A DNA stretch of 64,000 bases from the IMG/VR virus record IMGVR_UViG_3300035088_000013, positions 1 to 64,000 of that record. One strand, written 5' to 3'. Below the pieces are notes generated by a model that ran no database searches, was not told the DNA's origin, and saw only the letters and a list, made by a program, of their open reading frames with translations. Made by a program: the position numbers and the translations under genes. This DNA comes from a virus. This document shows positions 761 to 32,050 of the stretch, one piece after another (position 1 is the first letter of the stretch; every line of letters starts with the position of its first letter).

Positions 761-847
761 TCTGTTGACATCAGGTTGAGGGTCGTGTTTACTTGGTTTG
801 TGAGCGCGGGGGGCTGGAGCCCCCGCCCCGCCCGAGAGGAGCCCACC
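761..847 (+). promoter_or_regulatory. repeated promoter-hairpin-RBS element, copy 1
   Basis: CTGTTGACA-15nt-TGTTTACTT-GGTTTGTGAGCGC-GGGGGGCTGGAGCCCCCG...GAGAGGAG then ATG 848. Confidence 0.9.
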
Positions 848-1195
848 ATGGCGTACGGAGTCGTCGAGACCAACCCGATCAGCGACGCGGACCTGGCCGT
901 CCGCGACCGGATCGACTACTCGAAGCGGTACCAGCTCGCCGACCGGGACCTGGTGAAGATCACCCGGCTGCGGCTGTTGACCGAGCCCGGCACCCCGGTC
1001 CTGGACCTCTCCTACTGCTACGGGGAGCTGAAGGACGGCACCCCGGTCCTGGTCGACCTCCCCCGGCACCAGTTCGCCAAGCACCTGTGGAAGTCGCAGA
1101 TGTACGCGATGTTCACCGAGGCGGGCCGCTACGCCAAGGGCATGGGCATCGACCCGACGAACGGCTGCCCGGCGTTGTCGATCATGTGGGGGTGA
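848..1195 (+). CDS. hypothetical phage protein (cassette 1)
   Basis: ATG directly after element RBS; MAYGVVETNP... Confidence 0.85.
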   Translation: MAYGVVETNPISDADLAVRDRIDYSKRYQLADRDLVKITRLRLLTEPGTPVLDLSYCYGELKDGTPVLVDLPRHQFAKHLWKSQMYAMFTEAGRYAKGMGIDPTNGCPALSIMWG

Positions 1196-1305
1196 CCCCC
1201 CCGCCCGGCCCCCAGCGTCCACCTGGGGGGGGCCGGTGCTCCCCCGGGCAGGCCCTCGAGGTGTCGTCCTCGCCGGGCCTGCCCCCGTTGGTAGGTTGCG
1301 TGGTT

Positions 1306-1560
1306 GTGAGCTCAGCGATGTTCCACGTCAGCGGCGACTTGAACCGGATCCCCGACTACGACCCGGTGACCGGTGAGCACGCCTGGACGGTGTCGGCGTT
1401 GTTCGGGATCCGGGATCCGCAGGCCGCGTTCTCGCAAGGGTCCGCGATGCTGGACCGGGAGAACCTGTGGGGCATCTCGGGGGTGTTCTGCTACCACTGC
1501 GAGCAGGTGTGGTCCGAGCTGTTGGCCGAGGCCCCGTGTGACGGGGAGCCGGTCCGGTGA
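1306..1560 (+). CDS. small hypothetical protein with CxxC
   Basis: TAGGTT -10 just upstream of GTG; stop overlaps next start (GTGA). Confidence 0.6.
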   Translation: MSSAMFHVSGDLNRIPDYDPVTGEHAWTVSALFGIRDPQAAFSQGSAMLDRENLWGISGVFCYHCEQVWSELLAEAPCDGEPVR

Positions 1561-2393
1561 CCGGCGGCGACGAGCGTGAGCTGGGCGAGGACTGGCCGCC
1601 GAGCGAGCCCCTCACCGACCCCCACCCGGCGGATGTGGACCTGTTGTTGAGGGTGTTGCGGCGGGTGGAGGCCGACGCGCACCGCAAGGGCTGGGACTCC
1701 ACCCCGATGACGTTGTTCACCGTCTACGAGCACGGCGACGAGGACACCGACTACGTGTACCGGAAGTTGTGCGGGGCGAACCCGCGGACCCCCGTGACGG
1801 TCCGGGTCGGCGGGTACACGGCGCAGGCGATCATCCCCCCGCAGCTGCTCACCGGCACGCCGGGGGTGCCGCCGTACGAGGCGTTGCGCACCTACGCGAT
1901 GAACCTCGCCTACTGCCCGGACGACAGCGACGGATACCGGCCGGTCAACGTGATCCGGAGCGTGCTGCGGCTGCGTGGGGTGATCGCGGTCGGGTGCGTG
2001 TACGAGGCGTGGCAGCGGCTGATCGCCTCGGACCAGGCCCTCGCCGCGGAGCTGGCGGATGCGGCACCGGACTATTCGACGATGCCCGACTCGGTGGAGA
2101 TGCGGGTCGCGGCCGCGGTCGACCTCGAGGGCCGTCTGCACCAGGTGAAACGCACCCGCGGGGACCGGCCGGTCACGGTCGGCGGATACACGGTGCTGGT
2201 ACCCGGCCACGGCGAGGTGCAGCAGGCGGCCGACGTCAACGGGCACGGGGACGTGTCGAACTCGCTGCGGATCCTCGCCGACATGATCGTCGGGAAGACA
2301 CCCGCCGACCAGGAGGGGTTCGACGCCCGGTACCGCGGCTACCGGCAGATGATCCGCGAAGAACTGGACCGCGGGAGCGCCACGGGAGGGTGA
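1557..2393 (+). CDS. hypothetical protein
   Basis: 278 aa ORF with typical codon bias, coupled to upstream gene. Confidence 0.75.
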   Translation: MTGGDERELGEDWPPSEPLTDPHPADVDLLLRVLRRVEADAHRKGWDSTPMTLFTVYEHGDEDTDYVYRKLCGANPRTPVTVRVGGYTAQAIIPPQLLTGTPGVPPYEALRTYAMNLAYCPDDSDGYRPVNVIRSVLRLRGVIAVGCVYEAWQRLIASDQALAAELADAAPDYSTMPDSVEMRVAAAVDLEGRLHQVKRTRGDRPVTVGGYTVLVPGHGEVQQAADVNGHGDVSNSLRILADMIVGKTPADQEGFDARYRGYRQMIREELDRGSATGG

Positions 2394-2795
2394 ATCTGGG
2401 TGTCCCGGCGGACCTGGTGTGCGTTGATCATCGCGAGGGGTTCACCGGCTCGGCAAGCACTCTCCAGGAAGCCGGACCCCCCTTTTTGACCCTGCGTCCC
2501 TGCCCCGCCAGCCGGTCGAACAGGCCGGGCGGGGACGGAGGGGCGGGTGGCGCATGTGTCGGACGTGATCCTGTACGGCGGGTATTGCCCGTTGTGCGAT
2601 GACATCATCGATGCGTCCTCGCGGGCCGTGGTGCGCGGGCACGCGGACCGGCATTGGCGGTGGCATCTGCGGCTGGCGTTGTGGTGGTACCGGCGGCAGG
2701 ACCTCACGCATACCCGCCGGTGAGCGTGCCGGGGCCTGTCGTACGGTGCCGGGGGTTCCCGTTACCCACACCCGGCCAGCCAGGAGGCCCCGCTG

Positions 2796-3482
2796 ATGCT
2801 GATGCGCCCACGCCACTACCACGACGTGCCCGACTTCGACCGGAACAAGATCACCGGTTTGTGGGCGGTCGGGTTCCCGTCCCCTGAGGACGACCTGCGG
2901 TATGCGGTGTCGATCGTCGCGTCGATGGCTGACGACATCGACGGCCAGATCGGCCCAGGTCGCGGTGATCTGTTGTTGTGCACGCTGCGCGGATATCAGC
3001 CGATGCGGTATGCGATGGCGGTGATGACCGCCTATGCGCAGGCGAAACACGAGCAGTCGGTGTGGGCGCAGCTCCAGAAAATGAAGATATCGCTGGACGC
3101 GGCGCGGCACGTCGTCGCGGATTGCCGGGAGAAACGGGAGCCGGTAAACCATGGGCACACCCTTCCGCTGGCATTCGAACCGATCGTCTCCAGCACCACA
3201 CTCACCGGGAAGATTCACGTGCTGCTCGACGGGGTGCGGTTCGCGCAGTGGGACCTCGAGGACGCGAAGGGGCATGCCACGCACGTTTTGGAGGTGGCGG
3301 CGATGTGTCCGTGCGACCAGGCGTACTACGAGGCGATCTCCGGCACAGGCATGCAGGACAAAGGCGTGCCCACCCCGGATGAAGAACACCAGAGGGTTGC
3401 CCGTGCTGCGGTGTCGATGCTCGGCGAGCACTTCGACACGCCCGCGACCGTGGATGGTTGGGAACCCGACAAGAACCAGTGA
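2796..3482 (+). CDS. hypothetical protein
   Basis: AGGAGG RBS before ATG; 228 aa. Confidence 0.75.
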   Translation: MLMRPRHYHDVPDFDRNKITGLWAVGFPSPEDDLRYAVSIVASMADDIDGQIGPGRGDLLLCTLRGYQPMRYAMAVMTAYAQAKHEQSVWAQLQKMKISLDAARHVVADCREKREPVNHGHTLPLAFEPIVSSTTLTGKIHVLLDGVRFAQWDLEDAKGHATHVLEVAAMCPCDQAYYEAISGTGMQDKGVPTPDEEHQRVARAAVSMLGEHFDTPATVDGWEPDKNQ

Positions 3483-3663
3483 TGGGGCACACCCGGCCGC
3501 ATGTCATCCCCGCTCGGCAACGATGTGTCTGCATCGTTGCCTGCGGGGCGAGGTCACACGGCGTGTTGTGGTGTCCCCTCCTTCCGGGCAATCCAGGCAG
3601 TGAGGCAGGCTGCTGCTGAGCGTCCGATGCGGACTGCGGGTCATATGGGCTGTGACCTGCGGT

Positions 3664-6174: not shown

Positions 6175-6732
6175 TCAGCCCCAGGTCACCCGCAGGTTCT
6201 TCGCGAGGCAGCGGGACGCCAGCTCCCGCAGTTCCTCCAGGCGCATGGTCAGGTGCCCGGGTGCGCGGCCGAAGTCGACGACGGTGGTACCCGGGCGGTC
6301 GGCGGTACCGGCCCGGTAGGTGATCTCCGGCAGGCCCGCGTCGACCGGCCGGTTGACGCCGAGGGCGAGTTCGACGCGGTCGAGGAACGCGCGGGCGTTG
6401 TCGTCGCCGGACATGTCGTAGACCGGCCCGCCGAGCACGCCGACACCGTCTTCGAGGGGCTCGCGGAGGTAGCCGAGGGCGGCGAGGAGGTCCTGGGCGT
6501 TGCGGTTGTGGACGTTGACCGGGACGGGGTCGCCGTCGGCGTGCAGCTCGCGGACCTCCGCGCCGTACTGCTGGCAGAGCAGGTAGGTGCACACCAGGGC
6601 GTGGGCGTCGGCCTCGCGGTGGGCGTTGGCGGTGCCGGTCCAGATGTCGCCGATCTGCTCGCCGTTGTCGCAGATCAGCTCGAACTGGGCGGTGTCGACC
6701 GCGGAGAGTTCGGGGGAGAAGGTGACGGACAT
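6175..6732 (-). CDS. hypothetical phage protein (cassette 2)
   Basis: ATG after AAGGAGG of repeat copy 2. Confidence 0.85.
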   Translation of the reverse strand: MSVTFSPELSAVDTAQFELICDNGEQIGDIWTGTANAHREADAHALVCTYLLCQQYGAEVRELHADGDPVPVNVHNRNAQDLLAALGYLREPLEDGVGVLGGPVYDMSGDDNARAFLDRVELALGVNRPVDAGLPEITYRAGTADRPGTTVVDFGRAPGHLTMRLEELRELASRCLAKNLRVTWG

Positions 6733-6816
6733 GGGGCCTCCTTGGGGTGGGGTGGGGGCTCCAGCCCCCCCACTCACACCTCAAGTAAACATGATCTCCG
6801 TCGTGATGTCAACAGG
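6733..6816 (-). promoter_or_regulatory. repeated element, copy 2
   Basis: CCTGTTGACA-15-TGTTTACTT...GTGAGTGGGGGGGCTGGAGCCCCCAC...AAGGAGG on minus strand. Confidence 0.9.
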
Positions 6817-6958
6817 TTCTCAGTCGGTGATGCTGGCGATCCAGTCGTTGACCAGCTCGGCCGGTGAGCCAGCCGGTCCGCAGCCCGAAGATCCTGCCGG
6901 GCGCGAGGGGGTGCAGGTGGACGGTCAGGGCACGGCGGTCGGTCGTGGGGTCGGTCAT
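6809..6958 (-). CDS. 49 aa peptide (cassette 3); stop lies in the TTGACA of copy 2
   Basis: ATG after AAGGAG; ends TGT-TGA within the next element. Confidence 0.55.
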   Translation of the reverse strand: MTDPTTDRRALTVHLHPLAPGRIFGLRTGWLTGRAGQRLDRQHHRLRTC

Positions 6959-7044
6959 GGTAGGGCTCCTTCGTCGGGGTGGGGGCTCCAGCCCCCCACT
7001 CACACATCCCAAGTAAACGCTATCTCCGTCGCGATGTCAACAGG
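6959..7044 (-). promoter_or_regulatory. repeated element, copy 3
   Basis: CCTGTTGACA-15-CGTTTACTT...GTGAGTGGGGGGCTGGAGCCCCCAC...AAGGAG. Confidence 0.88.
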
Positions 7045-7494
7045 CGGTGGTGAAGCGTCCTTCACGTCCGGGAGCTGGCGGCCGAGACGCCGCCATAACT
7101 CGTCCGCCGACGCCTTGGCCGTGGTGTCGAACCCGGTGCATGAGCACACCCCGAAGTCGTGGCCGATGATGCCCAGGGCCTCGCATTGGGCGTGCGTGGC
7201 GCGGGTCTTCCACGCCCAGCCCCCGGTGTCGTTGCGCAGCAGGCATTGCCGGAAGAACCCGGTGTCCCCCTCGGCGATCGGCTCACCGCAATGCAGGCAC
7301 GGCCACCCGGCCGGTACCGCCACCAGGGCGACACCCATCTCCACCAGCCACGGATCGAGGCGGGGAGCGAACGCGAACACCGCCTCGAGGGCGGCGAGTT
7401 GCCGGGTCCAGGAGTGGCACCGCCCGCAGTAGCCCTCCCGTTCGTCGTTCGGGTTGTGGGAGGTCATCGCGCAAGCGGGACAGGTGAAGCTCAC
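7000..7494 (-). CDS. Cys-rich Zn-binding hypothetical protein
   Basis: GTGA-coupled; CPAC, CGRC, CLHC; C-terminus reads through repeat copy 3. Confidence 0.7.
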   Translation of the reverse strand: MSFTCPACAMTSHNPNDEREGYCGRCHSWTRQLAALEAVFAFAPRLDPWLVEMGVALVAVPAGWPCLHCGEPIAEGDTGFFRQCLLRNDTGGWAWKTRATHAQCEALGIIGHDFGVCSCTGFDTTAKASADELWRRLGRQLPDVKDASPPPVDIATEIAFTWDV

Positions 7495-8273: not shown

Positions 8274-9070
8274 CGGTAGGCGACCCGGTCGCCTTGGCCG
8301 TGGGCGTCGCCGACGCCCCACACGAACGGCAGGACCGCCGCGCCGGGCACGTCGAGTTGCAGGCCGCCGATGATGATCGTGTAGTCGGTCTTGTTGCGGG
8401 CGATGTACTGGAGCCAGCCGTGGTGCTCGGCGGTGTGCAGGGCGTGCATGTTCCGCTCCCCGGCGAGGTCGTGGGCGACCTCCGGGATCGGCAAAGGCTC
8501 CGGGGATACCGATTCCCGGAAGGTGATCTGGTCGGGGCGGATCGTGTTCGGCAGCAGGAACCGCAGGTCCTCCCAGCGTTGCTGCGCGGCGGGGTCGCCG
8601 CACATGCCGTCGATCTGGTCGGCGAAGTAGTAGCGGCGGTGCCGGGCGTAGAACAAGGCACGGAGGCGGCCCGCGCGGGTGTGCGCGTTGACGGTGGGTT
8701 TGCTCATGTCGAGCAACTCCGACACCTTCGGCCGGTCGTAGAGCCGGGGCAGGCGGCCGATCCGGTCGAGGACCTGCCAGGCGTTACGGCCGAACGCCTG
8801 GCCGACGGTCCACGCGAGGGGTTCGTCGCGGCGGACCTCGATACCGCCGGGGATGCGCAGCACGGTGTCGCGGTTGAGGACGCGGACCTGCCCGGTGTTC
8901 AGGCGCACGACGTAGCGGGAGGCGACGGGGTCTCCGGCGAGGTAGTTGTACCAGCCGACGTCTTCGCCGATGCGTAGCATCCGCTGGCGTTCCCAGGATC
9001 GGGCGGGGTCGTCCGGCCGGAGGGTGAGTAGTTGTGTGGCGTTGGCGGGGGGGTGGATCGTGGTCGTCAC
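8270..9070 (-). CDS. DNA-binding protein with MerR/excisionase-like HTH
   Basis: RPKVSELLDMSKPTVNAHTRAGRLRA...RRYY pattern; GGAG RBS. Confidence 0.65.
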   Translation of the reverse strand: MTTTIHPPANATQLLTLRPDDPARSWERQRMLRIGEDVGWYNYLAGDPVASRYVVRLNTGQVRVLNRDTVLRIPGGIEVRRDEPLAWTVGQAFGRNAWQVLDRIGRLPRLYDRPKVSELLDMSKPTVNAHTRAGRLRALFYARHRRYYFADQIDGMCGDPAAQQRWEDLRFLLPNTIRPDQITFRESVSPEPLPIPEVAHDLAGERNMHALHTAEHHGWLQYIARNKTDYTIIIGGLQLDVPGAAVLPFVWGVGDAHGQGDRVAYR

Positions 9071-9100
9071 GTGGGGTCTCCAAACACTCGTTCCCACCCT

Positions 9101-9133
9101 AAGGTACAACCCGCGTCACGTTCATGTCAACGG
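9101..9133 (-). promoter_or_regulatory. SigA/HrdB-type promoter
   Basis: TTGACA-18-TACCTT upstream of the HTH gene. Confidence 0.75.
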
Positions 9134-9160
9134 GGTGGCTGGGGGGTAGAGTCCTTGGCC

Positions 9161-12874: not shown

Positions 12875-14152
12875 TCACGCGATGGTGTCCAGGTGCTCGT
12901 CGACCGCGGCCGCGGTGATGGGTTGCTGGCGTTGCGCGGCGCGGACCCGGTTGACCTGGACCCACTTGTCGACGCGCACTTCGGGTTGTGCGACGACGTC
13001 GTACGAGGGCCGGTGCTCCGGGTCCAAAGTCCAGTAGCCGAGGTTCCGGTTGTGGGTCGCCTTGTACTCCGGCATCCGGCGCTGCCGGGAAGCGACCTCG
13101 TACTCCCCGTACGTGCCGGTCGGCACCCCCTCGAGCAGCAGCTTCGACTGTTCGTAGGCGGCCTTCGCACCGGCGGACGCCTTCTGCAGCTCCCACACCG
13201 TCCCGGCGGCCCACGCGATCGTCACGGTGTCAGGGTCCTCACCGAGCGCCACCCACGACTCCGGCGACCGCCCGGCCGCCGCCGCCTCCTCGGTCTGCCA
13301 GCAGTGGTTCAGCGCCGGGCACGACGTGCACCGCCAGTCCGACGGCCCGGCCCCGTCCCGGGGCGGGGTGACCCCGAGCTCGAGCGAGTCGGCGAGGGCC
13401 AGCAGCGGCTCGAGGGCGCGCTGGGCGCGGGCGGGGTCGTACAGGTACCAGAACGACTCCTCGTCGCCGGGGGCACGGCGGACGCCGAGGATGCACACCC
13501 GGTTCACCGGCCAGCCTGCCGCTTCCAACGCGAGGCCGTAGATCATCGCCTGGTCGACGGCCTCGTCGGGGGGGCCGTAGTCGCCGACCTGTTCCCACTT
13601 CCACTCGCCGAACGTCTTGTAGTCGATGACGGTGCCGGTGATCGGGTCGTACTCGTCCAGGTACGCGGACCCCTCGAGGCCGGGTACTTCGAGGCGCATG
13701 TCGTAGTGCCGCCACGGGTACCGCCACGCCCGCGCGCGGGCGGCCTTGTCGTGGAACGCGGTCCCCATCGTCGCCGCCCGGCGGGGGATGCCGGTCCGGG
13801 GGGTGTAGTCGCCGGGTGGGGTCTCCCGGTACCACACCTGGCGTCGGCACTTGCCGACATCCGACACCCGCGGGCCCGGGGGCCGGTCCCCGGCCCCGGC
13901 CCGGCGTAGGGCGTACAGATGGTCGTCGTAGGCGGCCATGTCCTCCAACAGCGACGCGTGGTCGGCCTCAGCGGCCTGCTGGGCGAGCAGATCGGCCGGA
14001 TCGTGGGTGTACCCGGCACACCCGTCCGGTGGCCCGTCCTGGTGCGAATGCCAGGCTTGGCCGCACACGCACGGGCACTCGCGGGGGCCGATCGGCCACC
14101 CGGCGGCGGCGATGTTCGCCGCGGCCACCTGCACGTCGGTCATGCCGGTCAC
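12875..14152 (-). CDS. Cas4-like / RecE-type PD-(D/E)XK exonuclease
   Basis: SDVGKCRRQ, GTAFH, D...IDYKT, QxxxY, C-terminal CxxCxxxxxC; coupled to RecT. Confidence 0.85.
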   Translation of the reverse strand: MTGMTDVQVAAANIAAAGWPIGPRECPCVCGQAWHSHQDGPPDGCAGYTHDPADLLAQQAAEADHASLLEDMAAYDDHLYALRRAGAGDRPPGPRVSDVGKCRRQVWYRETPPGDYTPRTGIPRRAATMGTAFHDKAARARAWRYPWRHYDMRLEVPGLEGSAYLDEYDPITGTVIDYKTFGEWKWEQVGDYGPPDEAVDQAMIYGLALEAAGWPVNRVCILGVRRAPGDEESFWYLYDPARAQRALEPLLALADSLELGVTPPRDGAGPSDWRCTSCPALNHCWQTEEAAAAGRSPESWVALGEDPDTVTIAWAAGTVWELQKASAGAKAAYEQSKLLLEGVPTGTYGEYEVASRQRRMPEYKATHNRNLGYWTLDPEHRPSYDVVAQPEVRVDKWVQVNRVRAAQRQQPITAAAVDEHLDTIA

Positions 14153-15282
14153 GACCCGGCCCCCAACAGCTCGTCGAGGGCTACGATCCGGTCCCCGGCC
14201 GCGGTGTACCGGTCGGCCTGCTCATCCTGCCCGGCCTTACGCAGCGCCTCGGCGACCACCGGCCGGTACCGCAGCATGAGTTCGATGACCTCTTGCGGGG
14301 TGGCGGTGGTGAAGTCCTGGCCGCCGCGGGCGGCCCGCCACCGCCGGGTGATCCAGTCGAGATCCTTCCCGAGGACCCCGGCCTGCCACGCCAGCTCCGC
14401 CCGGGCCAGCTCCCCCCGCACATCATCGGCGGTGGTGTCGACGGCGGTGCCGTCGATGACCCGTTCCCGGGTGGCCGGGGGGTTCGCCTTGGTGTAGGCG
14501 GCCCGGCGTCGCTCGGCGGCGGCGTCGCGTTCCGCTTCGGCCTGTTTGCTGGCCTCGGACTCCTGCTCCGCGTCGGCGCGCATCTTGGCGGTCTCCTCCG
14601 GCACGTAGTAGCCGGAGAACGTGTTCGGCCACGCCGCCCGCAGGGACGCCGCCTCGGCGCACTTGACCAGCATCACCAAAGGTTTGCCGCCCCGGGAGGC
14701 GGGTTTCCAGTTCGCGATCGGGACCCGCTTGCCGGTGGCCACCCACCGGCCACGGTCGTCTTGGGTCTTCTCGGCCTGCATCGGGCAGTACTCGTCCCAG
14801 AACACCGGCCGGGACACGGCTTCGACGAACCCGGCCCGGTACACGCCGACCTTCGCGGCCAGGGGTGGTTCGGGGCTGGTCCACACGTCTTTCCAGACGC
14901 CGTCGGGGCCGCAGAACATCGGGGGTGCCTGGCCACGGTACTCCTTGGTCTCCTCAGCCTTACGGCGCAGGCCCTCGATCCCGACGTGCCGGATGTACTT
15001 CCCGGCGATGCGGTAGAGCATCGCCTCTTTCGCGTAGGGGTCGAAGCCGCGTTTACGGCAGTCGACCAGAAACGCGATCACCTCGCCGAGGTCGTAGTCG
15101 GCTTCGATGCCGAGGGGGCCGAGCAGCCGCATCTGGTCGGCGTCGAGGTGTTTCTGGGCGCGGGCGAACCGCAGCGGCAGGCCGTCGACGTGGGTGGGGA
15201 TGACGATGGTGTCGCCGTCCAGGGTCGCCACCGATTCGCGGCGGGCGACCGTGGTGGTGTCGGTTGGGGTGGTCTCGGTCAC
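14149..15282 (-). CDS. RecT/Bet single-strand annealing recombinase
   Basis: CRKRGFDPYAKE, GIEGLRRKA, MLVKCAEAASLRAAWP...YVPEE. Confidence 0.9.
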   Translation of the reverse strand: MTETTPTDTTTVARRESVATLDGDTIVIPTHVDGLPLRFARAQKHLDADQMRLLGPLGIEADYDLGEVIAFLVDCRKRGFDPYAKEAMLYRIAGKYIRHVGIEGLRRKAEETKEYRGQAPPMFCGPDGVWKDVWTSPEPPLAAKVGVYRAGFVEAVSRPVFWDEYCPMQAEKTQDDRGRWVATGKRVPIANWKPASRGGKPLVMLVKCAEAASLRAAWPNTFSGYYVPEETAKMRADAEQESEASKQAEAERDAAAERRRAAYTKANPPATRERVIDGTAVDTTADDVRGELARAELAWQAGVLGKDLDWITRRWRAARGGQDFTTATPQEVIELMLRYRPVVAEALRKAGQDEQADRYTAAGDRIVALDELLGAGS

Positions 15283-16868: not shown

Positions 16869-16872
16869 GGTA

Positions 16873-16960
16873 CCTGTTGACATCACGTAGGTTCTGGTGT
16901 TTACTTGTCTTGTGAGCGCGGGGGGCTGGAGCCCCCGCCCCGATCCCCCTGGGAGCCATC
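16873..16960 (+). promoter_or_regulatory. repeated element, copy 5
   Basis: full consensus. Confidence 0.9.
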
Positions 16961-17196: not shown

Positions 17197-17220
17197 GAAG
17201 CCTCGGAACCTCGAGGCTTC
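17197..17220 (+). terminator. hairpin
   Basis: GAAGCCTCG-gaacct-CGAGGCTTC. Confidence 0.6.
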
Positions 17221-17305
17221 CTGTTGACGTCACGTGCGGCATGGTGTTTACTTGTCTTGTGAGCGCGGGGGGCTGGAGCCCCCGCCCGACCCGAGAGGCA
17301 ACCCG
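17220..17305 (+). promoter_or_regulatory. repeated element, copy 6
   Basis: CCTGTTGACG-15-TGTTTACTT plus hairpin plus GAGAGG. Confidence 0.9.
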
Positions 17306-17950
17306 ATGATCGAGAACCTGACCACCGCGACCCCCACCGAGATCGACACCGCGATCGCCGCCCTGCACCACTCCCTGGCGAAGGCCGACCACAAGCGGAC
17401 CTCGTCGATCGGCTACCTGCACGACATCGCCAAGACCCGCAAGTACCGGCCCTCGACCTGGACCAACCGGAAGTCCGGCTACGACTACACCGCCACCGAC
17501 GCCGAGGCGATCGCGATCCTGACCGACGCGATCGAGGCGGCCGACGCGGGTACCTACACCGGCCCGATCTCCACCTACGACCTGAAGTACGGAAGCGCCA
17601 AGAAGCACCTGGAGGCCATCCCCGCACTGGAAGCGGAGATCGCGAAGATCAAAACGGAGATCAACCGGCTCGAGGGCGAATGGTCGGCCCGGCCGTGGTC
17701 GCGGTTCTTCCTGGTCACCTCGAGCACCGGCCACATCCACTCGTCGATGGGGTGCTCGACCTGCCGGATCACCACCACCTACGGATGGCTGCCGGAGATG
17801 TCCGGCAAGAGCGAGGCGGACGCGATGGAGCACCTGGACACCATCGGCGCGGGCCGCTCGACCCTGTGCTCGGTGTGCTTCCCGGACGCCCCGGTCGGGG
17901 ACACCCGGACCAAGGTCACCAAGGCGAAGGCGGCGAAGCTGGCCGCCTGA
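17306..17950 (+). CDS. conserved actinophage hypothetical protein
   Basis: WSRFFLV..GHIHSSMGCSTC...LCSVCFPDAP. Confidence 0.85.
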   Translation: MIENLTTATPTEIDTAIAALHHSLAKADHKRTSSIGYLHDIAKTRKYRPSTWTNRKSGYDYTATDAEAIAILTDAIEAADAGTYTGPISTYDLKYGSAKKHLEAIPALEAEIAKIKTEINRLEGEWSARPWSRFFLVTSSTGHIHSSMGCSTCRITTTYGWLPEMSGKSEADAMEHLDTIGAGRSTLCSVCFPDAPVGDTRTKVTKAKAAKLAA

Positions 17951-18378: not shown

Positions 18379-18560
18379 AGACGGCCGAGCAGATCCGCGC
18401 ACGGATGGCGACGTTGGAACAGATGACGGGGAACGCCCGGGCGACCAAGACGGCGCGGGTGATCTGGACGTCCCAGGCGGAGGCGTTGCGCTGGGCGCTG
18501 GGGGAGGTCGACCGCGAGGACATGAGTTTGATGGCCGACCTGGACCGGCAGGGAAAGTAA
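18375..18560 (+). CDS. small hypothetical protein
   Basis: GTGA-coupled. Confidence 0.65.
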   Translation: MKTAEQIRARMATLEQMTGNARATKTARVIWTSQAEALRWALGEVDREDMSLMADLDRQGK

Positions 18561-18566
18561 CCGGAT

Positions 18567-18656
18567 CCTGTTGACATCCCGTGAGTGATCGTGTTTACTT
18601 GACTTGTGAGCGCGGGGGGCTGGAGTCCCCGCCCCGACCCCGGAGAGGCAATCCCC
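18567..18656 (+). promoter_or_regulatory. repeated element, copy 8
   Basis: full consensus, hairpin with one G-U pair (GGAGTCCCC). Confidence 0.9.
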
Positions 18657-18866
18657 ATGATCAGCACCCTCGACCAGCTCCGCCACACCGCCGCCGAGAA
18701 GCGGGTGCGGATCATCGCCCGCCCGAACGAGACGTTCATCCTGCGCGACGCCCACACCGGCGACCACATCGCCACGGCCCACGGTTTCGACCAGCTCACC
18801 GAATCCCTCAACTGGGTCGACCACCCCGGCCAGGTCGACCCGGACGCGATGGGAACGGGCGCGTGA
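18657..18866 (+). CDS. small hypothetical protein
   Basis: ATG after element. Confidence 0.75.
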   Translation: MISTLDQLRHTAAEKRVRIIARPNETFILRDAHTGDHIATAHGFDQLTESLNWVDHPGQVDPDAMGTGA

Positions 18867-22632: not shown

Positions 22633-22659
22633 TATCGCAACACGGAGGTCCAGCCGAAA

Positions 22660-22750
22660 CCTGTTGACATCACGGTGTCGGTCGTGTTTACTTGGTTTGT
22701 GAGCGGCGGGGGGCTGGAGCCCCCGCCCCAACCCCCGAGAGGCGGCCCCC
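22660..22750 (+). promoter_or_regulatory. repeated element, copy 10
   Basis: full consensus, back-to-back with copy 9. Confidence 0.9.
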
Positions 22751-22984
22751 ATGAACACCTACACCGTGACCCTCCGCAAGGACGGCGGCCTGCGGATGCC
22801 CTACACCATGGCCGCCCCCGACACGGCAACCCTGTTCGCCGCGATCGACCCGAAGGACGAGGTCGTCTCGATCGTCCGGATCGACGACGACACCCCCGAC
22901 TACCTGCTGGACTACCTGCCGCTGAGCGTCGCGTCCCGGGTCGCCGCGAACTCCGCGTTCTACGTCGGCGACCCGAACTCCTGA
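22751..22984 (+). CDS. small hypothetical protein
   Basis: ATG after element. Confidence 0.8.
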   Translation: MNTYTVTLRKDGGLRMPYTMAAPDTATLFAAIDPKDEVVSIVRIDDDTPDYLLDYLPLSVASRVAANSAFYVGDPNS

Positions 22985-23386: not shown

Positions 23387-23574
23387 TCGGCCGGATGCTG
23401 TTGCGCGGGCCGCGATATCCGCTGTTGTGGGCGGTCGCGGTGATCGTGCTGCTGCTGGTGGTGCTGCCCGTCTGGGTGGCGGTGCTGCTGGCGGTGGTGA
23501 TGGTCGTGGCGGTGGTGGGCCTGGTCCGGCGGGGGGTTCGGCGGGTCCGGAGGCCCAAACAGAAACCCTGTTGA
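23383..23574 (+). CDS. small membrane protein; stop in the TTGACA of copy 11
   Basis: long hydrophobic stretch; GTGA-coupled. Confidence 0.65.
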   Translation: MIGRMLLRGPRYPLLWAVAVIVLLLVVLPVWVAVLLAVVMVVAVVGLVRRGVRRVRRPKQKPC

Positions 23575-23657
23575 CATCCTGATGCCGGTCGTGTTTACTT
23601 GTCTTGTGAGCGCGGGGGGCTGGAGCCCCCGCCCCGACCCCCGAGAGGCGGCCCCCG
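23567..23657 (+). promoter_or_regulatory. repeated element, copy 11
   Basis: full consensus. Confidence 0.9.
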
Positions 23658-23861
23658 ATGAGCATCTACGAGTACCGCGACGGCGTGAAGATGGCCAGCG
23701 ACGAGCTGGTGGAGTTCTGGAACAGCCGTGACCTGTGCTGGGCCTGCGACCAGATCCACACCCCGCAGCACACCACGGACGGCTTCCACCACTACCGGTG
23801 CCCGCGCAACAGCACCCACCCGTTCGACGAGCTGACCTGGAAGCGGCCCGTCACCGCCTGA
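23658..23861 (+). CDS. small Zn-ribbon protein
   Basis: CWAC...CP; ATG after element. Confidence 0.8.
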   Translation: MSIYEYRDGVKMASDELVEFWNSRDLCWACDQIHTPQHTTDGFHHYRCPRNSTHPFDELTWKRPVTA

Positions 23862-23884: not shown

Positions 23885-24124
23885 ATGACGCCTGAGACGT
23901 TCGTGATCCTCGGATCGATGCAATGGGGCTACGGCCCCACCCTGGACGCCGCGAAGCGGCGGTGGCGCACGCAAGGCCGCGGGAAACTCTCCGACGGCTA
24001 CGGCGTCTACACCTTCGGCGAGGGGTCGACCTTCGAGGGGGTCGACAACCTCGGCCGGGTGCACTGGTCCGGCGAGCGGCCCGCGTTCACCGAGGTCCCG
24101 GCCCGGACCCGGAAAGCCTGTTGA
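23885..24124 (+). CDS. small hypothetical protein; stop in the TTGACA of copy 12
   Basis: GAGAGG RBS; MTPETFVILG... Confidence 0.7.
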   Translation: MTPETFVILGSMQWGYGPTLDAAKRRWRTQGRGKLSDGYGVYTFGEGSTFEGVDNLGRVHWSGERPAFTEVPARTRKAC

Positions 24125-24201
24125 CATCGCACGGGTGATCGTGTTTACTTGGTTTGTGAGCGGGGGGCTGGAGCCCCCGCCCCAACCCCGAGGAGGCCCC
24201 C
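24117..24201 (+). promoter_or_regulatory. repeated element, copy 12
   Basis: full consensus. Confidence 0.9.
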
Positions 24202-24423
24202 ATGACCACCATCACCCGGTTCCCGTGCCCCCACCCGGTGCAGGACGCCGACGAGGACGGCATCTACACCACCGACTGCGAGGCCCCGGCCGCGACCTAC
24301 GCCGACGGCACCGGCTGGGCGTGCGTGAACGGCCACCACGACGCCGACGACTCCTACCGGGTCGAGGACCCGGCCGAGAACTTCCGCGAGCGGTACATCG
24401 AGCGGATGTACGCCACCGCGTGA
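24202..24423 (+). CDS. small acidic Cys/His protein
   Basis: ATG after element. Confidence 0.8.
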   Translation: MTTITRFPCPHPVQDADEDGIYTTDCEAPAATYADGTGWACVNGHHDADDSYRVEDPAENFRERYIERMYATA

Positions 24424-25522: not shown

Positions 25523-25801
25523 GCCCGGGGTCCCCGGGGGCGTCCCGAACAGGCACCCCCGGGGGTAGGACATACGCAGCAGTGAGCATAACCGGCCGGT
25601 TCGCCCGGCCGGGGCGGGACACGCGCGGCGGGGCCTCCAGAACCCCGCTGGGCGGCCCGGCGGCCGGACGGGTACCCACGGGGTCCCCGCTGGCCGTGAC
25701 GGGCCAGGGCGGGCGTCGTAGCGAGCCCCCCGGGTGGAGTTGCCTCTCCTCCCCGGGGCGCGGCCGGTACGACGCCCGCCTTGTCGTATCCACCACCCAA
25801 G

Positions 25802-25892
25802 CCTGTTGACATCACGCGGTGCATCGTGTTTACTCAGTTTGTGAGCGGCGGAGGGGCTGGAGCCCCCGCCCGAACCCGAAGGGGAGGCCGAC
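25802..25892 (+). promoter_or_regulatory. repeated element, copy 13
   Basis: CCTGTTGACA-15-TGTTTACTC plus hairpin plus GGGGAGG. Confidence 0.9.
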
Positions 25893-26162
25893 ATGTTCCG
25901 CACCGAACGTGAGCGGGAGTGCTACCGGGCGTTGCACACCGGCGGAGAGGCGGCGCTGGAGGCGCTGGTCGGGGACGTGATCTCCACCGATCTGATCAAC
26001 CGCTGGGCGGACGCGGGGATGCTCCGGGTGAAGAACCTCGACCCCGGACGCGCACCGAAGCCCCTGGTCCTGATGAACGCGGACGAGCGTGCCGCGTGGA
26101 ACGCCCACGTCATCGCGAACACCGGCTACACGATCAAGACGTTCGCGAAGTACGCCCACTGA
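25893..26162 (+). CDS. small hypothetical protein
   Basis: ATG after element. Confidence 0.8.
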   Translation: MFRTERERECYRALHTGGEAALEALVGDVISTDLINRWADAGMLRVKNLDPGRAPKPLVLMNADERAAWNAHVIANTGYTIKTFAKYAH

Positions 26163-26163
26163 T

Positions 26164-26250
26164 CCTGTTGACATGACGCAGGAGATGGTGTTTACTTTGT
26201 TTGTGAGCGCGGGGGGCTGGAGCCCCCGCCCCGCGAGAGAGGCCACCGAC
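26164..26250 (+). promoter_or_regulatory. repeated element, copy 14
   Basis: full consensus, starts right after the upstream stop. Confidence 0.9.
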
Positions 26251-27153
26251 ATGATGACCACCGCGAACACCACCGCCACCGCCGGGACCTGCCTGGCCTG
26301 CGGATTCGTCAACGCCACCACCGACCCCGCCACCGTCACCGCCTGCACCGGATGCGGGGAGCGGGTCGTGCTGACCTGGGTCCGGGGCGTCACCAACAAG
26401 CGGGTCCCCTGCGACGACCGGTGCCAATACGCCATCGGCTCCTACTGCTCCTGCGCCTGCGGCGGCCGCAACCACCGGGCCGGATACATCCACGTCGACC
26501 TGGTCCCCGCCTACATCCGGGAGCGCGACGCGAAACGGCACGCCGACCGGCTGGCCCGGGCCGCCAGCAAGGCCGCCGCGACCCGGGCCGCGCACGCCAC
26601 CGCGATGGCCGAGCTGCTGGCCGAGCACCCCACCCTGGAGGCCCTGCTGGGCGACCGGTACGACGGCGCGTACGGCTTCATGGCCGACATGCGGGCCGCG
26701 CTGGAGCGGGGCGACATGACCCCCCGGCAGATCGAGGCCGCGACCGACGCCGTCGAGCGCGACGCCGCCCGGGACCGGGCACGCGACGAGCGGGACGCGG
26801 CGCGGGCCGCGCTGGCCGCCGCGGGGGTCAAGGTCACCGAGGGCCGCCGGGTCCTCGAGGGCGAGATCGTCCGGGTGTCCAGCAAGGAGAGCTACTTCGG
26901 CTACCAGGAGCGGACCGTGTGGCAGATCATGGTCAAGCTGGCCGACGGGTGCACGGTGATGGGCACCCTGCCCGAGGGGATCCGGCCCACCTCCTACACC
27001 GGCGGCGAGGCCACCGACGAGGGCTCCTGGGCGTGGCACATGGCCCAGCTGGTCGGCAAGACCGTCCGGTTCACCGGCACCGTGAAGCCCTCCGACCGGG
27101 ACGAGACCTTCGGGTTCTACACCCGGCCCACCAAGGCCGCACTGGTCGACTGA
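26251..27153 (+). CDS. Cys-rich N-terminus plus C-terminal OB-fold-like nucleic-acid-binding protein
   Basis: CDDRC...CSCACGGRNH; C-terminal VRFTGTVK...FGFYTRPTKA. Confidence 0.7.
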   Translation: MMTTANTTATAGTCLACGFVNATTDPATVTACTGCGERVVLTWVRGVTNKRVPCDDRCQYAIGSYCSCACGGRNHRAGYIHVDLVPAYIRERDAKRHADRLARAASKAAATRAAHATAMAELLAEHPTLEALLGDRYDGAYGFMADMRAALERGDMTPRQIEAATDAVERDAARDRARDERDAARAALAAAGVKVTEGRRVLEGEIVRVSSKESYFGYQERTVWQIMVKLADGCTVMGTLPEGIRPTSYTGGEATDEGSWAWHMAQLVGKTVRFTGTVKPSDRDETFGFYTRPTKAALVD

Positions 27154-28008: not shown

Positions 28009-28106
28009 AAACAGCCTCACCCGGGCGGTCTCCGAATCCGGCCCCAGCGTTCCGTTCGCCCCCCTTCCGGCCCTGGCCGCCGAGGGGGGCGATTTCTTTT
28101 CCCCTA

Positions 28107-28195
28107 CCTGTTGACATCCTGGCTGTGTCCGTGTTTACTTAGTTTATGAGCGGCGGGGGGGCTGGAGCCCCCCGCCCCGCCCGAGAGGAGCCCCC
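28107..28195 (+). promoter_or_regulatory. repeated element, copy 15
   Basis: full consensus. Confidence 0.9.
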
Positions 28196-28429
28196 ATGAC
28201 CACCACGATCGACACCCCCCGCGGCCCGATCTCCGTCGGCGCGCGGATCGGCTACAAGCCCTTCCTGGGCGGCCTGCGCATGGTCACCGTGACCCTGGTC
28301 GACCCCGACATCAGGAACGGCCGTCCCGGGTTCGAGGGCGTCGTCGACGGCGTCACCGACCCCGACGACGCCGGGGTGTGGGGTTACGCCGACCAGATCA
28401 TCCGGATCTACGACCGGGGGCTGGCGTGA
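28196..28429 (+). CDS. small SH3-like hypothetical protein
   Basis: ATG after element; NGRPGF...WGYADQI. Confidence 0.8.
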   Translation: MTTTIDTPRGPISVGARIGYKPFLGGLRMVTVTLVDPDIRNGRPGFEGVVDGVTDPDDAGVWGYADQIIRIYDRGLA

Positions 28430-28701: not shown

Positions 28702-28967
28702 GCGAGATCTACCGGCCGGGGGAGGTGGTCGCGGTGAGCGTCGACGGCGGGGTGCGGCCGATGTACGTGCACCGGGTGGTGCAGCTGCTGGTCGTGGGGA
28801 CGTCGCCGGAGGGCGGCCGGACGTGCAAGGTGGGGGAGCGGGAGGTGGTCGCGGTCGGGCTCCCGGCGGTCTCCGAGGCGGTCGCGCGGGCGTCGGGGTT
28901 CGACGTGCAGCAGGTGGCCGAGAGCATCGCGGAGGACTACGCCGATTGGGTCGCGGACCAAAACTAG
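28698..28967 (+). CDS. hypothetical protein
   Basis: AGGAGG RBS, GTGA-coupled. Confidence 0.7.
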   Translation: MSEIYRPGEVVAVSVDGGVRPMYVHRVVQLLVVGTSPEGGRTCKVGEREVVAVGLPAVSEAVARASGFDVQQVAESIAEDYADWVADQN

Positions 28968-28971
28968 CCCG

Positions 28972-29068
28972 CCTGTTGACATCACGTGCCAGATCGTGTT
29001 TACTTGGTTTGTGAGCGGCGGGGGGCTGGAGCCCCCGCCCCCGACCCCGACCCCCCGAGGAGGCCCCC
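28972..29068 (+). promoter_or_regulatory. repeated element, copy 16
   Basis: full consensus. Confidence 0.9.
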
Positions 29069-29251
29069 ATGTACGACGTCCACCCCGCCTACGCCGACGC
29101 GAACGGCACCTACGCCTGGTGCGACCGGCACGACCTGACCACCGTGGTCGCCGAGCACACCGCGGTCGGCTACGCGGGCGGCACCGTCTGGTCCCTGGAG
29201 CTGGCCTGCGGGTGCACCGAGACCAGCGAGACCATCGGGGACATCCGGTGA
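29069..29251 (+). CDS. small Cys/His protein
   Basis: ATG after element. Confidence 0.75.
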   Translation: MYDVHPAYADANGTYAWCDRHDLTTVVAEHTAVGYAGGTVWSLELACGCTETSETIGDIR

Positions 29252-29963: not shown

Positions 29964-30000
29964 CCCGGGGAGTGTACGGGGCCGGGAAACCCCCGCATCG

Positions 30001-30086
30001 CCTGTTGACATCGCGTGCGGGATGGTGTTTACTTGGTTTGTGAGCGGGGGGCTGGAGCCCCCGCCCCGAGCGCCCGGGAGGCCCCC
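30001..30086 (+). promoter_or_regulatory. repeated element, copy 17
   Basis: full consensus. Confidence 0.9.
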
Positions 30087-30446
30087 ATGTTCACCACCTA
30101 CGAGATCCTCACCGCCCGCATCGGCGCGACGTTCGACGGCCTGATCGTCGCGGACCGGTCCTGGCCCGCGGACGCGCCGAAGCCCGGCCCGGAGCTGGAG
30201 CCCGGCTCGGACGCCTGGTACGAGGCCATCGGCCCGGCGGGCACGGTGTACCTGACCTCCGACGGCCGCGGAGCGAACACCTACGGGTGGTGCGAGTGTG
30301 GCGGACAGACCGGCCAGGTGTGGTTCGACTCGCCCGGCATCGGCGAGGGCCAGGTGTGGGTGCGCTACGAGCGGTACACGCCCGCGGGGCGGGAGGCGCA
30401 CGGGTGGGTGCACCAGGGCTGCCGGATGCTGCTGCAGGTCGGCTGA
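30087..30446 (+). CDS. hypothetical protein
   Basis: ATG after element. Confidence 0.8.
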   Translation: MFTTYEILTARIGATFDGLIVADRSWPADAPKPGPELEPGSDAWYEAIGPAGTVYLTSDGRGANTYGWCECGGQTGQVWFDSPGIGEGQVWVRYERYTPAGREAHGWVHQGCRMLLQVG

Positions 30447-30453
30447 GCGGGCC

Positions 30454-30481: not shown

Positions 30482-30499
30482 CGGATCGGTTACCGAAAC

Positions 30500-30582
30500 C
30501 CTGTTGACATGACGCGGTTCATCGTGTTTACTTGACTTGTGCGGGGGGCTGGAGCCCCCGCCCCGCCCCAAGGAGGCCCCCG
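30500..30582 (+). promoter_or_regulatory. repeated element, copy 18
   Basis: full consensus. Confidence 0.9.
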
Positions 30583-30900
30583 ATGGCGACGATGATCCGC
30601 TGCGGCACCTGCATCAACCGGCACGCGACCGTCGCGGATGTTCGCGAGTGCGCCGCGGAGTTCTACGACTACCAGGCCCAAAGCGAGGGTGAGATCTACG
30701 CCGAAGCGGTCATGTCCTGGGTGATGGGCGGCGGGAACCCCGAGGATGCCTCCCTCTACGCGGGAGTGATCGCCCGCGGCGGCGTCTGGAACGGCGGCAT
30801 CGCACCCCCCGGCGACGACGACGGCGACGACGAGCTGTGCGAGCACGGCTTGTCCGCCCGGCTGTGCGTCGGCCCCTCCCACTACCCCCTGGACATGTGA
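30583..30900 (+). CDS. small Zn-binding protein
   Basis: IRCGTC..RH....VREC; CEHG...C...HY. Confidence 0.8.
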   Translation: MATMIRCGTCINRHATVADVRECAAEFYDYQAQSEGEIYAEAVMSWVMGGGNPEDASLYAGVIARGGVWNGGIAPPGDDDGDDELCEHGLSARLCVGPSHYPLDM

Positions 30901-30969
30901 CCACCACCCCCCCCGGCCCCCGGGCGATCCCGCCCGGGGGGAACGTCAACGTTCCGGAAAGGACACACC

Positions 30970-31263
30970 ATGGCGACTCTCTCCCGCGACCAGTGGGAAA
31001 AGCTGCTCGACGCACTGGCCGACCTCGAGGCCATCGACGAGGGCCACCAGCCCCACCCCGACGACACCGACTGCGCCGCGTTCGTCCTCGCCAGCACCGG
31101 CCAGATCGTGCGGTTCGGCGGGTTCCTCGCCCAGGCGTTGACCAACGCCGGGCTCGGCGACTTCGACCGGGACCTGTTCTACGACGATGCCCGCACGGAG
31201 ATCATCGACCGCGGCCGGGTGCTGCTGTACTTCCGGTCCGTCACGATCGCGAAGGGAGAGTGA
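30970..31263 (+). CDS. hypothetical protein
   Basis: GAAAGGA RBS. Confidence 0.75.
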   Translation: MATLSRDQWEKLLDALADLEAIDEGHQPHPDDTDCAAFVLASTGQIVRFGGFLAQALTNAGLGDFDRDLFYDDARTEIIDRGRVLLYFRSVTIAKGE

Positions 31264-31265
31264 GC

Positions 31266-31511
31266 ATGGATTGGACGATGCCCGCGGAGTTGGAGCCGTA
31301 CCGGGAGCTGATCACCAACACCGGCGGCAACACCGTGGAAAGGCTGATGAGCATCTATCTGGCCGGGGGTGAGGCCGGTGCCCGGATGATGCAGACGAAC
31401 CTTCCGGTGTATCTGATGGCGTGCATGTGCGGCGCGCAGATCGCATTGCTGCGGGTGCTGGTGCGGGAGGGGAAGCTCCCCGCGCGCGGCCCGGCCGCTG
31501 GAGCGCGGTGA
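31266..31511 (+). CDS. hypothetical protein
   Basis: follows upstream gene; MDWTMPAEL... Confidence 0.65.
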   Translation: MDWTMPAELEPYRELITNTGGNTVERLMSIYLAGGEAGARMMQTNLPVYLMACMCGAQIALLRVLVREGKLPARGPAAGAR

Positions 31512-31750
31512 TGGGCCGCGCGTACGAGAAGCGGATGGCCCGGTTGCAGGCCGCGCAGGAAGCAACCGGCCGCGCCCCGGCTCCGGCGGGGCCGATGCAC
31601 CGGGCCAGCCGGGAGGCGTTCGTGCGCGGTTTCGGCCTGTCGGCGGCGGCCGTCAAGCAGTTGGTCGACCGGTGGGAGGCTGACGCGGTGGCCTGTTACG
31701 ACAAGGGGTTCGACGACGGGCGGGAGTGGCAGGAGGAGCAGCAGGGGTGA
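31511..31750 (+). CDS. hypothetical protein
   Basis: TGATG-coupled. Confidence 0.6.
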   Translation: MGRAYEKRMARLQAAQEATGRAPAPAGPMHRASREAFVRGFGLSAAAVKQLVDRWEADAVACYDKGFDDGREWQEEQQG

Positions 31751-31971
31751 AGCGGCGGGGGTGGCTGGAGCGGCTGAGAGCCGATCTGCCGGGCTGGTAC
31801 GTGTGGGCGACCGGGTACGGGAGGCAGTGGCATGCGGTGCCGCTGGCGGGCGGCTGGCGGGTCGGCCGGGCTCCCCGGGGGGCTCCGGGGCGGATCGACG
31901 CGCCGTCGCCGATCGTGTTGCGCAGTCTGGTGCGTCAGAAAGAACGAGACAACCCCACTCCACCCTGTTGA
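31747..31971 (+). CDS. hypothetical protein; stop in the TTGACA of copy 19
   Basis: GTGA-coupled; LRADLPGWYVW...WHA motif. Confidence 0.6.
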   Translation: MKRRGWLERLRADLPGWYVWATGYGRQWHAVPLAGGWRVGRAPRGAPGRIDAPSPIVLRSLVRQKERDNPTPPC

Positions 31972-32050
31972 CATCCGAACGGGTGACGTGTTTACTTGGT
32001 TTGTGAGCGGGGGGCTGGAGCCCCCGCCCCAACCCGGAGAGGCAACCACC
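31964..32050 (+). promoter_or_regulatory. repeated element, copy 19
   Basis: full consensus. Confidence 0.9.

Follow-up and report, generated by a model that had tools for sequence, protein, structure and literature searches.

The stretch of DNA analyzed here (the window) comprises the first 64 kb of the 86,302-bp virus record IMGVR_UViG_3300035088_000013, which has a GC content of 69.4% and an estimated completeness of 95%. Genes were found in the record for the tape measure, for minor tail and head proteins, for RecT and a Cas4-like exonuclease, for a helix-turn-helix (HTH) replication initiator, for an endolysin-like protein and for a tyrosine integrase, and this gene content indicates a temperate siphovirus-like phage with a high-GC (actinobacterial) host. 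The source is an uncultured soil phage of this type, and the record may represent a prophage flanked by short stretches of host DNA. No close cultured relative was found in the phage collection by tblastn, where matches to the tape measure protein were all below 60% protein identity and those to RecT and an 830-aa protein were distant (≤42% identity among the matches listed). The element in question is a unit of ~85–95 bp, with promoter-like boxes and usually a hairpin, that stands in front of a gene; all 19 copies lay in the first 32 kb of the record, in the non-structural arm, and none in the virion arm.

The pattern TGTTGACA-N16-GTTTACT, with at most one mismatch, matched the window 19 times (16 on the plus strand, three on the minus strand) against 0.00 expected from 100 shuffles, and no further copy was present across the whole record. 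The matches fell exactly where the initial annotation, made from the sequence without database searches, had placed a 19-copy repeat unit. The parts followed one another in the order -35 box, spacer, GTTTACT, hairpin, C-rich linker, ribosome site and start codon. The -35 box matched TTGACA perfectly in all copies (18/19) but the one at 17220, which reads TTGACG, and the hexamer 17 nt downstream was TTTACT in every copy, with T rather than A at position 2. Read as TGTTGAC and TGTTTAC, the boxes make up a direct repeat at a distance of 23 bp, and the spacer between them, as had been claimed, was constant in length and variable in sequence (19/19).

The hairpin GGGGGC-TGGA-GCCCCC was present on the sense strand, with 0–1 mismatch, in 16 of the 19 copies; it had been thought common to all, but the copy at 16459(+) lacked one, that at 17989(+) carried a hairpin with an AAGGA loop, and that at 22632(-) had swapped arms. 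With up to two mismatches on both strands, 30 matches were obtained against 0.32 expected, and the canonical hairpin was never found apart from a promoter copy. Its distance from the -10 box ranged from 10 to 16 nt and that to the ATG from 14 to 33 nt; since the box spacing is fixed and the hairpin distances vary, the boxes constitute one unit and the hairpin a separate part. The same variation of 10–16 nt spoke against taking GTTT and the G run together for a SigF/SigB-type promoter, a reading that was rejected. The hairpin was followed by C-rich sequence; as a T run is lacking behind it on both strands, a role as opposite-strand terminator was discarded. Conservation in the 19-copy alignment was lowest in the columns of the linker and ribosome site. 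Behind every copy lay a ribosome site and a start codon, 68–97 nt from the first base of the copy, and every copy was co-oriented with its gene.

Following a suggestion of the initial annotation, the 19 copies were used to build a covariance model (R1), which was applied to the full record with filters disabled. The model recovered the copies at 48–104 bits and added a 20th, degenerate one (Table 1). It also detected two promoters that share only the -35 part and have an ordinary -10 of the TAnnnT type, the actinobacterial -10 consensus, without the canonical hairpin. A metagenome scan with the hairpin gave eight loci, of which only one, L093 (9,568 bp of a 30-kb contig), was related. This locus was ~76% identical to the window (~72–81% across common genes), was colinear with it from the exonuclease to the equivalent of 25.4 kb, and contained three elements (R1 70.7, 66.5, and 38.8 bits) and one promoter with the -35 part only. 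Box spacing was identical in both canonical L093 copies (2/2), and both had the -10 box without A at position 2 (A-less).

Table 1. Copies of the element, related promoters and neighboring features in the window (integrase: record coordinates). R1, covariance model; SD, Shine-Dalgarno sequence.
Feature	Position	Strand	Score or evidence
Element, canonical hairpin, SD, ATG 848; heads 8-gene rightward block	751..850	+	R1 104.0 bits
Element, outer stem pair C-G -> T-A; heads 185-aa gene	6730..6826	-	R1 88.3 bits
Element, in tandem with 6730..6826 copy, also T-A outer pair; followed by weak 49-codon frame	6956..7054	-	R1 88.6 bits
Degenerate 20th copy: TTGACT, 18-nt spacer, TAGCTT, different leader hairpin; divergent from 16459 copy	16329..16440	-	R1 29.9 bits, E 2e-5
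Element, promoter without hairpin, short leader	16449..16529	+	R1 54.6 bits
Element, canonical	16863..16963	+	R1 99.5 bits
Element, canonical, -35 = TTGACG	17210..17308	+	R1 93.4 bits
Element, variant hairpin with AAGGA loop	17979..18072	+	R1 53.6 bits
Element, one stem pair G-U on sense strand	18557..18659	+	R1 100 bits
Element, hairpin arms swapped, GC-TGGA-GC apex kept, extra outer helix; back to back with 22660 copy; cassette opposite in L093	22539..22642	-	R1 48.6 bits
Element, canonical	22650..22753	+	R1 101.8 bits
Element, canonical; upstream gene ends (23574) on TGA inside TTGACA	23557..23660	+	R1 97.1 bits
Element, canonical; upstream gene ends (24124) inside TTGACA	24107..24204	+	R1 104.3 bits
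Element, extra A in 5' arm	25792..25895	+	R1 88.8 bits
Element, canonical	26154..26253	+	R1 101.6 bits
Element, both arms one base longer	28097..28198	+	R1 88.9 bits
Element, longest C-rich linker	28962..29071	+	R1 94.8 bits
Element, canonical	29991..30089	+	R1 96 bits
Element, without GAGC block before hairpin	30490..30585	+	R1 90.8 bits
Last element; heads 9-gene, ~8-kb rightward block including endolysin-like gene	31954..32053	+	R1 90.3 bits
Related promoter: CCTGTTGACA box as in elements, TATGGT after 19 nt, without hairpin; heads 131-aa gene conserved in L093	15849..15967	-	R1 14 bits
Related promoter: CCGTTGACA box, TACCTT after 18 nt, without hairpin	9056..9144	-	R1 14.1 bits
Terminator-like hairpin directly before 16873 element	16849..16868	+	perfect-stem scan, folds
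Similar terminator-like hairpins	17196-17221, 17961-17986, 30454-30481, ~28056-28100		
Phage recombination pair: Cas4-like exonuclease + RecT	12875..15282	-	Pfam RecT 6.2e-9; PHROG exonuclease and RecT-like families
Tyrosine integrase (locus L089)	genome 81535-82707	-	near right end of record

The plus-strand copies headed units of 1–9 genes spanning 347–9036 bp. The initial annotation had each copy preceding a different, unrelated small gene; the 19 first products were indeed mutually dissimilar (best pairwise blastp E-value 0.008), but at 49–300 aa they were not all small, and the shortest, the 49-codon frame behind 7044(-), had a weak coding signal (third-position GC 0.76). Hairpins resembling terminators, said to lie often just before the next copy, preceded six copies, as perfect stems of at least 8 bp directly before 16873, 17220, 17989, and 30500 and as imperfect hairpins before 28107 (with a T run) and 25802. 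The copies at 18567, 23567, 24117, 26164, and 28972 abutted the upstream gene, leaving no room for a terminator, and the upstream hairpins were not conserved between copies. A common terminator family with a GAAA loop was considered and dropped (4 matches against 3.2 expected, not significant). Several upstream frames ended on the TGA inside TTGACA (23572–23574, 24122–24124, 31969–31971, and 6809–6811(-)), and the frame 7467–7000(-) ran through the entire promoter of the 7044 copy before its stop.

In the canonical hairpin, a 6-bp G/C stem carried the UGGA loop, and a bulged G and two outer pairs completed it. When 23 copies were aligned (20 window copies, three L093 copies), pairing was kept in 95.8% of cells and six of eight pairs had changed on both sides, a result reached by 0 of 500 shuffles, while slid controls paired at 47–66%; the model had fitted this alignment to the structure, which biases covariation upward, and most double changes came from 3–4 divergent copies. 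With a transcription start assumed ~7 nt after the -10 box, the hairpin would begin ~5 nt from the predicted 5' end, and folds did not systematically sequester the ribosome site. In the degenerate copy at 16440(-) a different hairpin occupied the same place.

The changes among copies bear on whether the hairpin acts as RNA or as DNA. A double-stranded operator, at which a dimeric phage repressor or regulator bound to GGGGGC/GCCCCC would silence ~16 promoters in the lysogen, would suit a temperate phage with a tyrosine integrase, in which many strong -35 boxes need silencing, and phiC31 has about 10 palindromes of 18 bp among about nine early-promoter motifs; these palindromes reportedly silence promoters in the lysogen of that phage. 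However, the four-nucleotide center is asymmetric and always oriented with transcription, and G-U pairs occurred independently twice on the sense strand (window copy 18567 and L093 8982–9080), changes that read as C-A mismatches on the opposite strand. The copies at 6816 and 7044 changed the outer pair from C-G to T-A, and the copy at 22632(-) swapped the arm sequences and added an outer helix yet kept pairing and the GC-UGGA-GC apex. The position relative to the -10 box also shifts by 6 nt, and an operator is therefore considered unlikely. The G-U and compensatory changes, the arm-swapped copy that keeps its loop and the constant loop orientation favor a leader hairpin in RNA, which may serve as a 5' stabilizer and/or a protein-binding site.

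A related possibility is that the GTGAGCG block and the hairpin form a nut-like or attenuator site, at which a protein-bound hairpin would let polymerase pass the cassette terminators and the U-less hairpin would otherwise attenuate, separating early from delayed expression. Lambda-type nut sites combine a linear box and a short leader hairpin, bound by an N-like protein that confers antitermination; in the window, a conserved linear block and a short GC leader hairpin with a purine-rich loop lay directly after the predicted start, in 16 units; the apex was kept even where the arms changed, and several units ended in terminator-like hairpins. Against this, no N-like or Q-like protein was identified in the record (fold-search rows to lambda Q were noise, E >2 and TM 0.15), and a search of Rfam at gathering thresholds gave zero matches to the element. 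Each unit also has its own promoter, so that read-through is not needed for expression, and five units lacked a terminator before the next element. Such a site seems improbable here.

The -10 box raises the question of which polymerase reads the elements. No sigma region 2 or region 4 domain, WhiB protein or serine recombinase was detected in the record; neither was a single-subunit RNA polymerase, a weak blank since the control also matched nowhere. With no sigma r2/r4, single-subunit polymerase or WhiB detectable, the host polymerase is the default reader. An alternative is that the promoters are read through a phage-specified factor, either a divergent sigma factor or an activator that appropriates sigma, and not by the unmodified host holoenzyme. 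It would account for a GTTTACT without A at position 2 in 19/19 window copies and 2/2 L093 copies, and the TGTTGAC/TGTTTAC direct repeat would suit it as well. A candidate is the 131-aa protein encoded at 15489–15884(-), whose homologue in L093 (1953–2336(-), 127 aa) shares 54% identity and whose gene has the -35 box of the elements with an ordinary -10; the language-model clusters closest to it were phage clusters annotated Sigma70_r4/HTH_17 (score 0.85), a weak lead only. Yet the -35 box is the perfect host-type TTGACA, no sigma r2/r4 domain was detectable in the record, and the model of the 131-aa protein (pLDDT 69.6) matched nothing, so a phage-specified reader is thought to be an outside chance.

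Taken together, the element is best read as a co-regulated promoter and RNA-leader module that also marks cassette boundaries, and a probability of roughly 0.55 is given to the elements being one regulatory class of transcription-start plus leader modules of a temperate actinophage. The anatomy fits the co-regulation proposed in the initial annotation, i.e., invariant boxes at fixed spacing, a leader, an SD and start codon, co-orientation with genes, and a place at the head of units.

Several observations weigh against this reading. A consensus promoter scan, which required a TTGACA-like -35 and a -10 with A as second and T as sixth base, 16–18 nt apart, found 0 sites in 16000–33000 and called none of the copies a promoter. 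Although the -35 box and the 17-nt spacing fit host sigma-70/SigA-type promoters, position 2 of TTTACT is T, and housekeeping sigma factors normally depend on an A there; unaided host recognition of the elements is doubtful. The presumed phage factor was not pinned down among candidates from the window and the record: neither Pfam nor PHROG gave a match for candidate regulators or for right-arm genes close to the integrase, a 122-aa protein had no usable Atlas match, and the 131-aa protein, beyond the weak cluster lead, had no Pfam, PHROG, PDB or fold match (Foldseek nothing at E ≤0.001; VIA-align best Z 3.0). The consensus bases around the -35 box, which are lineage-specific, could equally mark a DNA-binding regulator. 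To these points are added the upward bias in covariation described above and the fact that a stabilizing role of the hairpin is argued by analogy.

In the favored scheme, the unit consists of five parts: the -35 box (C)CTGTTGACA; a spacer of fixed length and free sequence; the invariant, non-canonical -10 block GTTTACT without A at hexamer position 2; a leader of ~5 nt followed by the bulged UGGA RNA hairpin; and the C-rich linker with the SD and start codon. The host RNA polymerase holoenzyme would use the perfect -35 box, and the odd common -10 would place the ~19 units in one class that is probably dependent on, or modulated by, a phage factor. The few promoters that combine the element-type -35 with an ordinary -10, and that head replication and recombination genes, would fire unaided. 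The hairpin would act in the mRNA as a 5'-proximal stabilizer and/or a binding site for a regulator, not as a DNA operator. As a side effect, the near-identical 85–95-bp units would offer portable homology, through which the phage RecT and exonuclease, or host recombination, could delete, insert or invert whole cassettes. A two-tier arrangement, in which the ordinary promoters act first and one of their products then switches on the A-less class, is attractive but unproven. A more elaborate version of it, a two-key switch of a kind not described in actinophages, is rather unlikely: the A-less class would stay silent until a small HTH or sigma-region-4-like phage protein, made from the sister promoters with ordinary -10 boxes, re-tools the holoenzyme, a second phage protein would address the UGGA hairpin to affect elongation, stability or translation of each early message, and the units would double as RecT-dependent joints for exchanging cassettes.

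Comparison with L093 was used to examine cassette exchange, which the initial annotation had expected to proceed by whole element-to-element units. Six differences were scored in this one relative over 9.6 kb. Three were bounded by elements: three whole cassettes (16459–17988) present in the window only, with elements at both ends; a 192-aa gene inverted together with its element; and the 23567 unit, which is replaced in L093 by two leftward genes and also has elements at both ends. One replaced block had an element at one end, in the window only. The remaining two had none at either end, namely a replaced block at 18226–20817, whose left end lay inside a gene, and a 248-aa gene found in the window only. 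In all three shared cassette heads, similarity to L093 began at the -35 box and the DNA upstream was unrelated. Parts were also mixed between orthologous heads, with a canonical promoter and variant hairpin in the window against a variant promoter and canonical hairpin in L093, and the reverse in the inverted cassette. The dinucleotide before TGTTGACA was CC in 18/19 window copies and AC in 3/3 L093 copies, and TTTACTT in 17/19 window copies stood against TTTACTA in 2/2 L093 copies; these lineage-specific bases fit homogenization among copies or co-evolution with a binding factor.

These patterns support the elements as frequent, not exclusive, joints, and the swappable module claimed earlier was thus borne out only in part (3/6 differences). 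Ordinary mosaicism at gene boundaries would look much alike, which weighs against the swapping claim. That the elements are primarily recombinational joints for cassette shuffling, comparable to PeSL mini-circles or integron sites, with expression secondary, is highly unlikely. It could draw on the -35 breakpoints and the element-bounded rearrangements, including the inverted cassette, on upstream genes that end in or flush with an element, on an 8-nt tandem duplication at a -35 box (L093 8982–9080), and on the RecT and exonuclease encoded nearby. No dedicated recombinase was found near the array, however, and strong conservation falls on just the blocks that a promoter plus leader would be expected to keep; two of the six differences have no element at either end, and the comparison covers one relative only.

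Several further observations concern L093. The tandem duplication is AACTGTTG present twice (8982–9001) and may be a scar of recombination or slippage. Two divergent promoters, at 2334–2417(-) and 3648–3736(+), both contained CTGTTGACATGTATGTAT, and the leftward one held a TGACAT...ATGTCA dyad; the pair may be an immunity operator region.

Searches beyond L093 gave little. Megablast and blastn of the window or the element found no match in the phage collection or the plasmid collection, and exact-pattern scans of viral contigs gave chance singles or nothing. A pattern scan of genome contigs returned 47 single matches and no multi-copy locus. Viral contigs also yielded no related locus when queried with RecT, a two-row RecT alignment or the 830-aa protein. 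One contig with two pattern matches (L001) was set aside as an unrelated small circular virus with a terminal repeat. Four other soil and root metagenome DNA runs, from four studies, contained contigs of 151–344 nt with mostly 0 differences to the phage (window 14001–34000), so that the phage or its lysogen recurs in such samples. Three of these contigs spanned an upstream gene and its element (23430–23636, 25741–25891, and 28894–29119); they support the assembly and are uninformative on cassette swapping. The joints listed for these contigs, with sides of 20–27 letters and 80% likeness, were treated as noise.

The initial annotation suggested that the cassettes may carry genes for host takeover and anti-defense. 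Among 20 cassette proteins, 18 had no Pfam match; the other two were a PIN-domain protein and one with a sub-threshold YefM-like match. The PIN-domain gene (20019–20662, Pfam 1.4e-9) lay in the cassette headed by 18567, was preceded by an overlapping 76-aa frame, with which it forms a putative VapBC-like pair, and was followed by a 12-bp perfect hairpin (20665–20692). The first gene of the 17989 cassette (18070–18378) encoded a C-terminal part resembling the YefM antitoxin (21.4 bits, below the cut-off of 29.8), and its L093 homologue, of 62 aa, lacked this part. A zeta-toxin-like kinase domain (Pfam 1.9e-16) was encoded among the virion genes at 53508–54467(-).

Repeated early-promoter modules are already known, and the distinctive points of this one are the A-less -10 box and the bulged hairpin with a conserved apex. 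One compact unit of 90 bases could put at least 16 early operons of a temperate phage of a high-GC host under one control, and it offers a concrete, mutable design for dissecting atypical -10 recognition and leader hairpins in actinobacteria. If the repeats are also recombination joints, they would help to account for the mosaicism seen at the level of single genes in early regions of actinophages. In actinobacterial engineering, the unit may be of use as a portable part for gene expression.

Two published groups of repeats had been named at the outset as analogous to, yet different from, this motif, and both parts of that judgment held. In the available part of the source (Comeau et al., 2014, PMC4122927, also citing Arbiol et al., 2010), PeSLs (promoter-stem-loops) of T4-type phages are described as composites of a terminator and a promoter, and indels between relatives are linked to them. 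Like the window element, they combine a small host-type early promoter with a stem-loop and are repeated among variable small genes. Unlike in PeSLs as described there, the conserved stem-loop in the window lies in the leader, 10–16 nt downstream of the -10 box, has no T run and is not a terminator half; upstream, hairpins resembling terminators show no conservation and are missing from five copies. Host, phage type and sequences are unrelated. The SAS of Cluster K phages is a short conserved motif at the translation start, and the ESAS an imperfect 17-bp inverted repeat pair with a 4–13-bp spacer, for which the authors, in the portion available, considered an RNA hairpin poorly supported (Pope et al., 2011, PMC3203893). 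These repeats, so far as that portion goes, share with the element a position at gene starts among non-structural genes, mostly one orientation and consensus bases that differ between lineages. The window element differs from SAS, as there described, in that the ribosome-site region is its least conserved part and a full promoter is included, and from ESAS in having arms of 6 bp plus two outer pairs, a 4-nt loop and a covarying hairpin. The likeness to PeSL and to SAS/ESAS is an analogy, not membership.

Two other repeats are known from actinophages. From the text available, Gordonia phage Vardy has a 50-bp promoter motif with a -10 box in five copies, with leaderless starts and without a hairpin (PMC9671010), and Cluster O phages have a 17-bp palindrome, a bare dyad mostly away from promoters, with deletions between repeats (PMC4351075). 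Both, as far as these sources extend, are intergenic and lie in the non-structural arm, as in the window.

The same layout was found in the cultured Cluster B1 mycobacteriophage PG1 (NC_005259), in which at least seven leftward units were present on the minus strand at record positions 40500–68963. Each opened with GTGTTGACA, followed after 17 nt by a -10 box (TAACTT or TAAGTT), and continued through a short leader and a GC hairpin to a ribosome site and an ATG, and R1 recognized two of the copies weakly (17 bits). As in the window, these are co-oriented units, here of 80–90 bp, each before a different gene of the non-structural arm, and the layout matches part for part. PG1 differs in its ordinary -10, a small palindrome in the spacer, another hairpin sequence and loop, and a different lineage and host; its module is of the same kind and not of the same family by descent, since homology does not extend beyond the boxes. 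A literature search found no published description of the window element or of the PG1 module, and the motif strings occurred in print as chance primer matches only. The PG1 layout makes the question testable in Mycolicibacterium smegmatis.

The early arm of phiC31 contained ~9–10 copies of a promoter-like motif, CCGGGTTGCCGACTCCCTTAC, and ~10 copies of an 18-bp perfect palindrome, and the phage is annotated with its own sigma-like gp12. Papers by Ingham, Wilson and Smith reportedly deal with the roles of the early-promoter motif and of the conserved inverted repeats. In the window phage, no repressor that would bind such repeats was identified. R1 had no match in phiC31 at E up to 1; the motif sequences are dissimilar, and the phiC31 palindrome is separate from the promoter and perfectly symmetric, unlike the hairpin of the window. 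Both phages are nevertheless temperate with a high-GC actinobacterial host, and in both the early arm is cut by a promoter-like motif with a second dyad repeat nearby; among published architectures in temperate phages of high-GC hosts, that of phiC31 is the closest.

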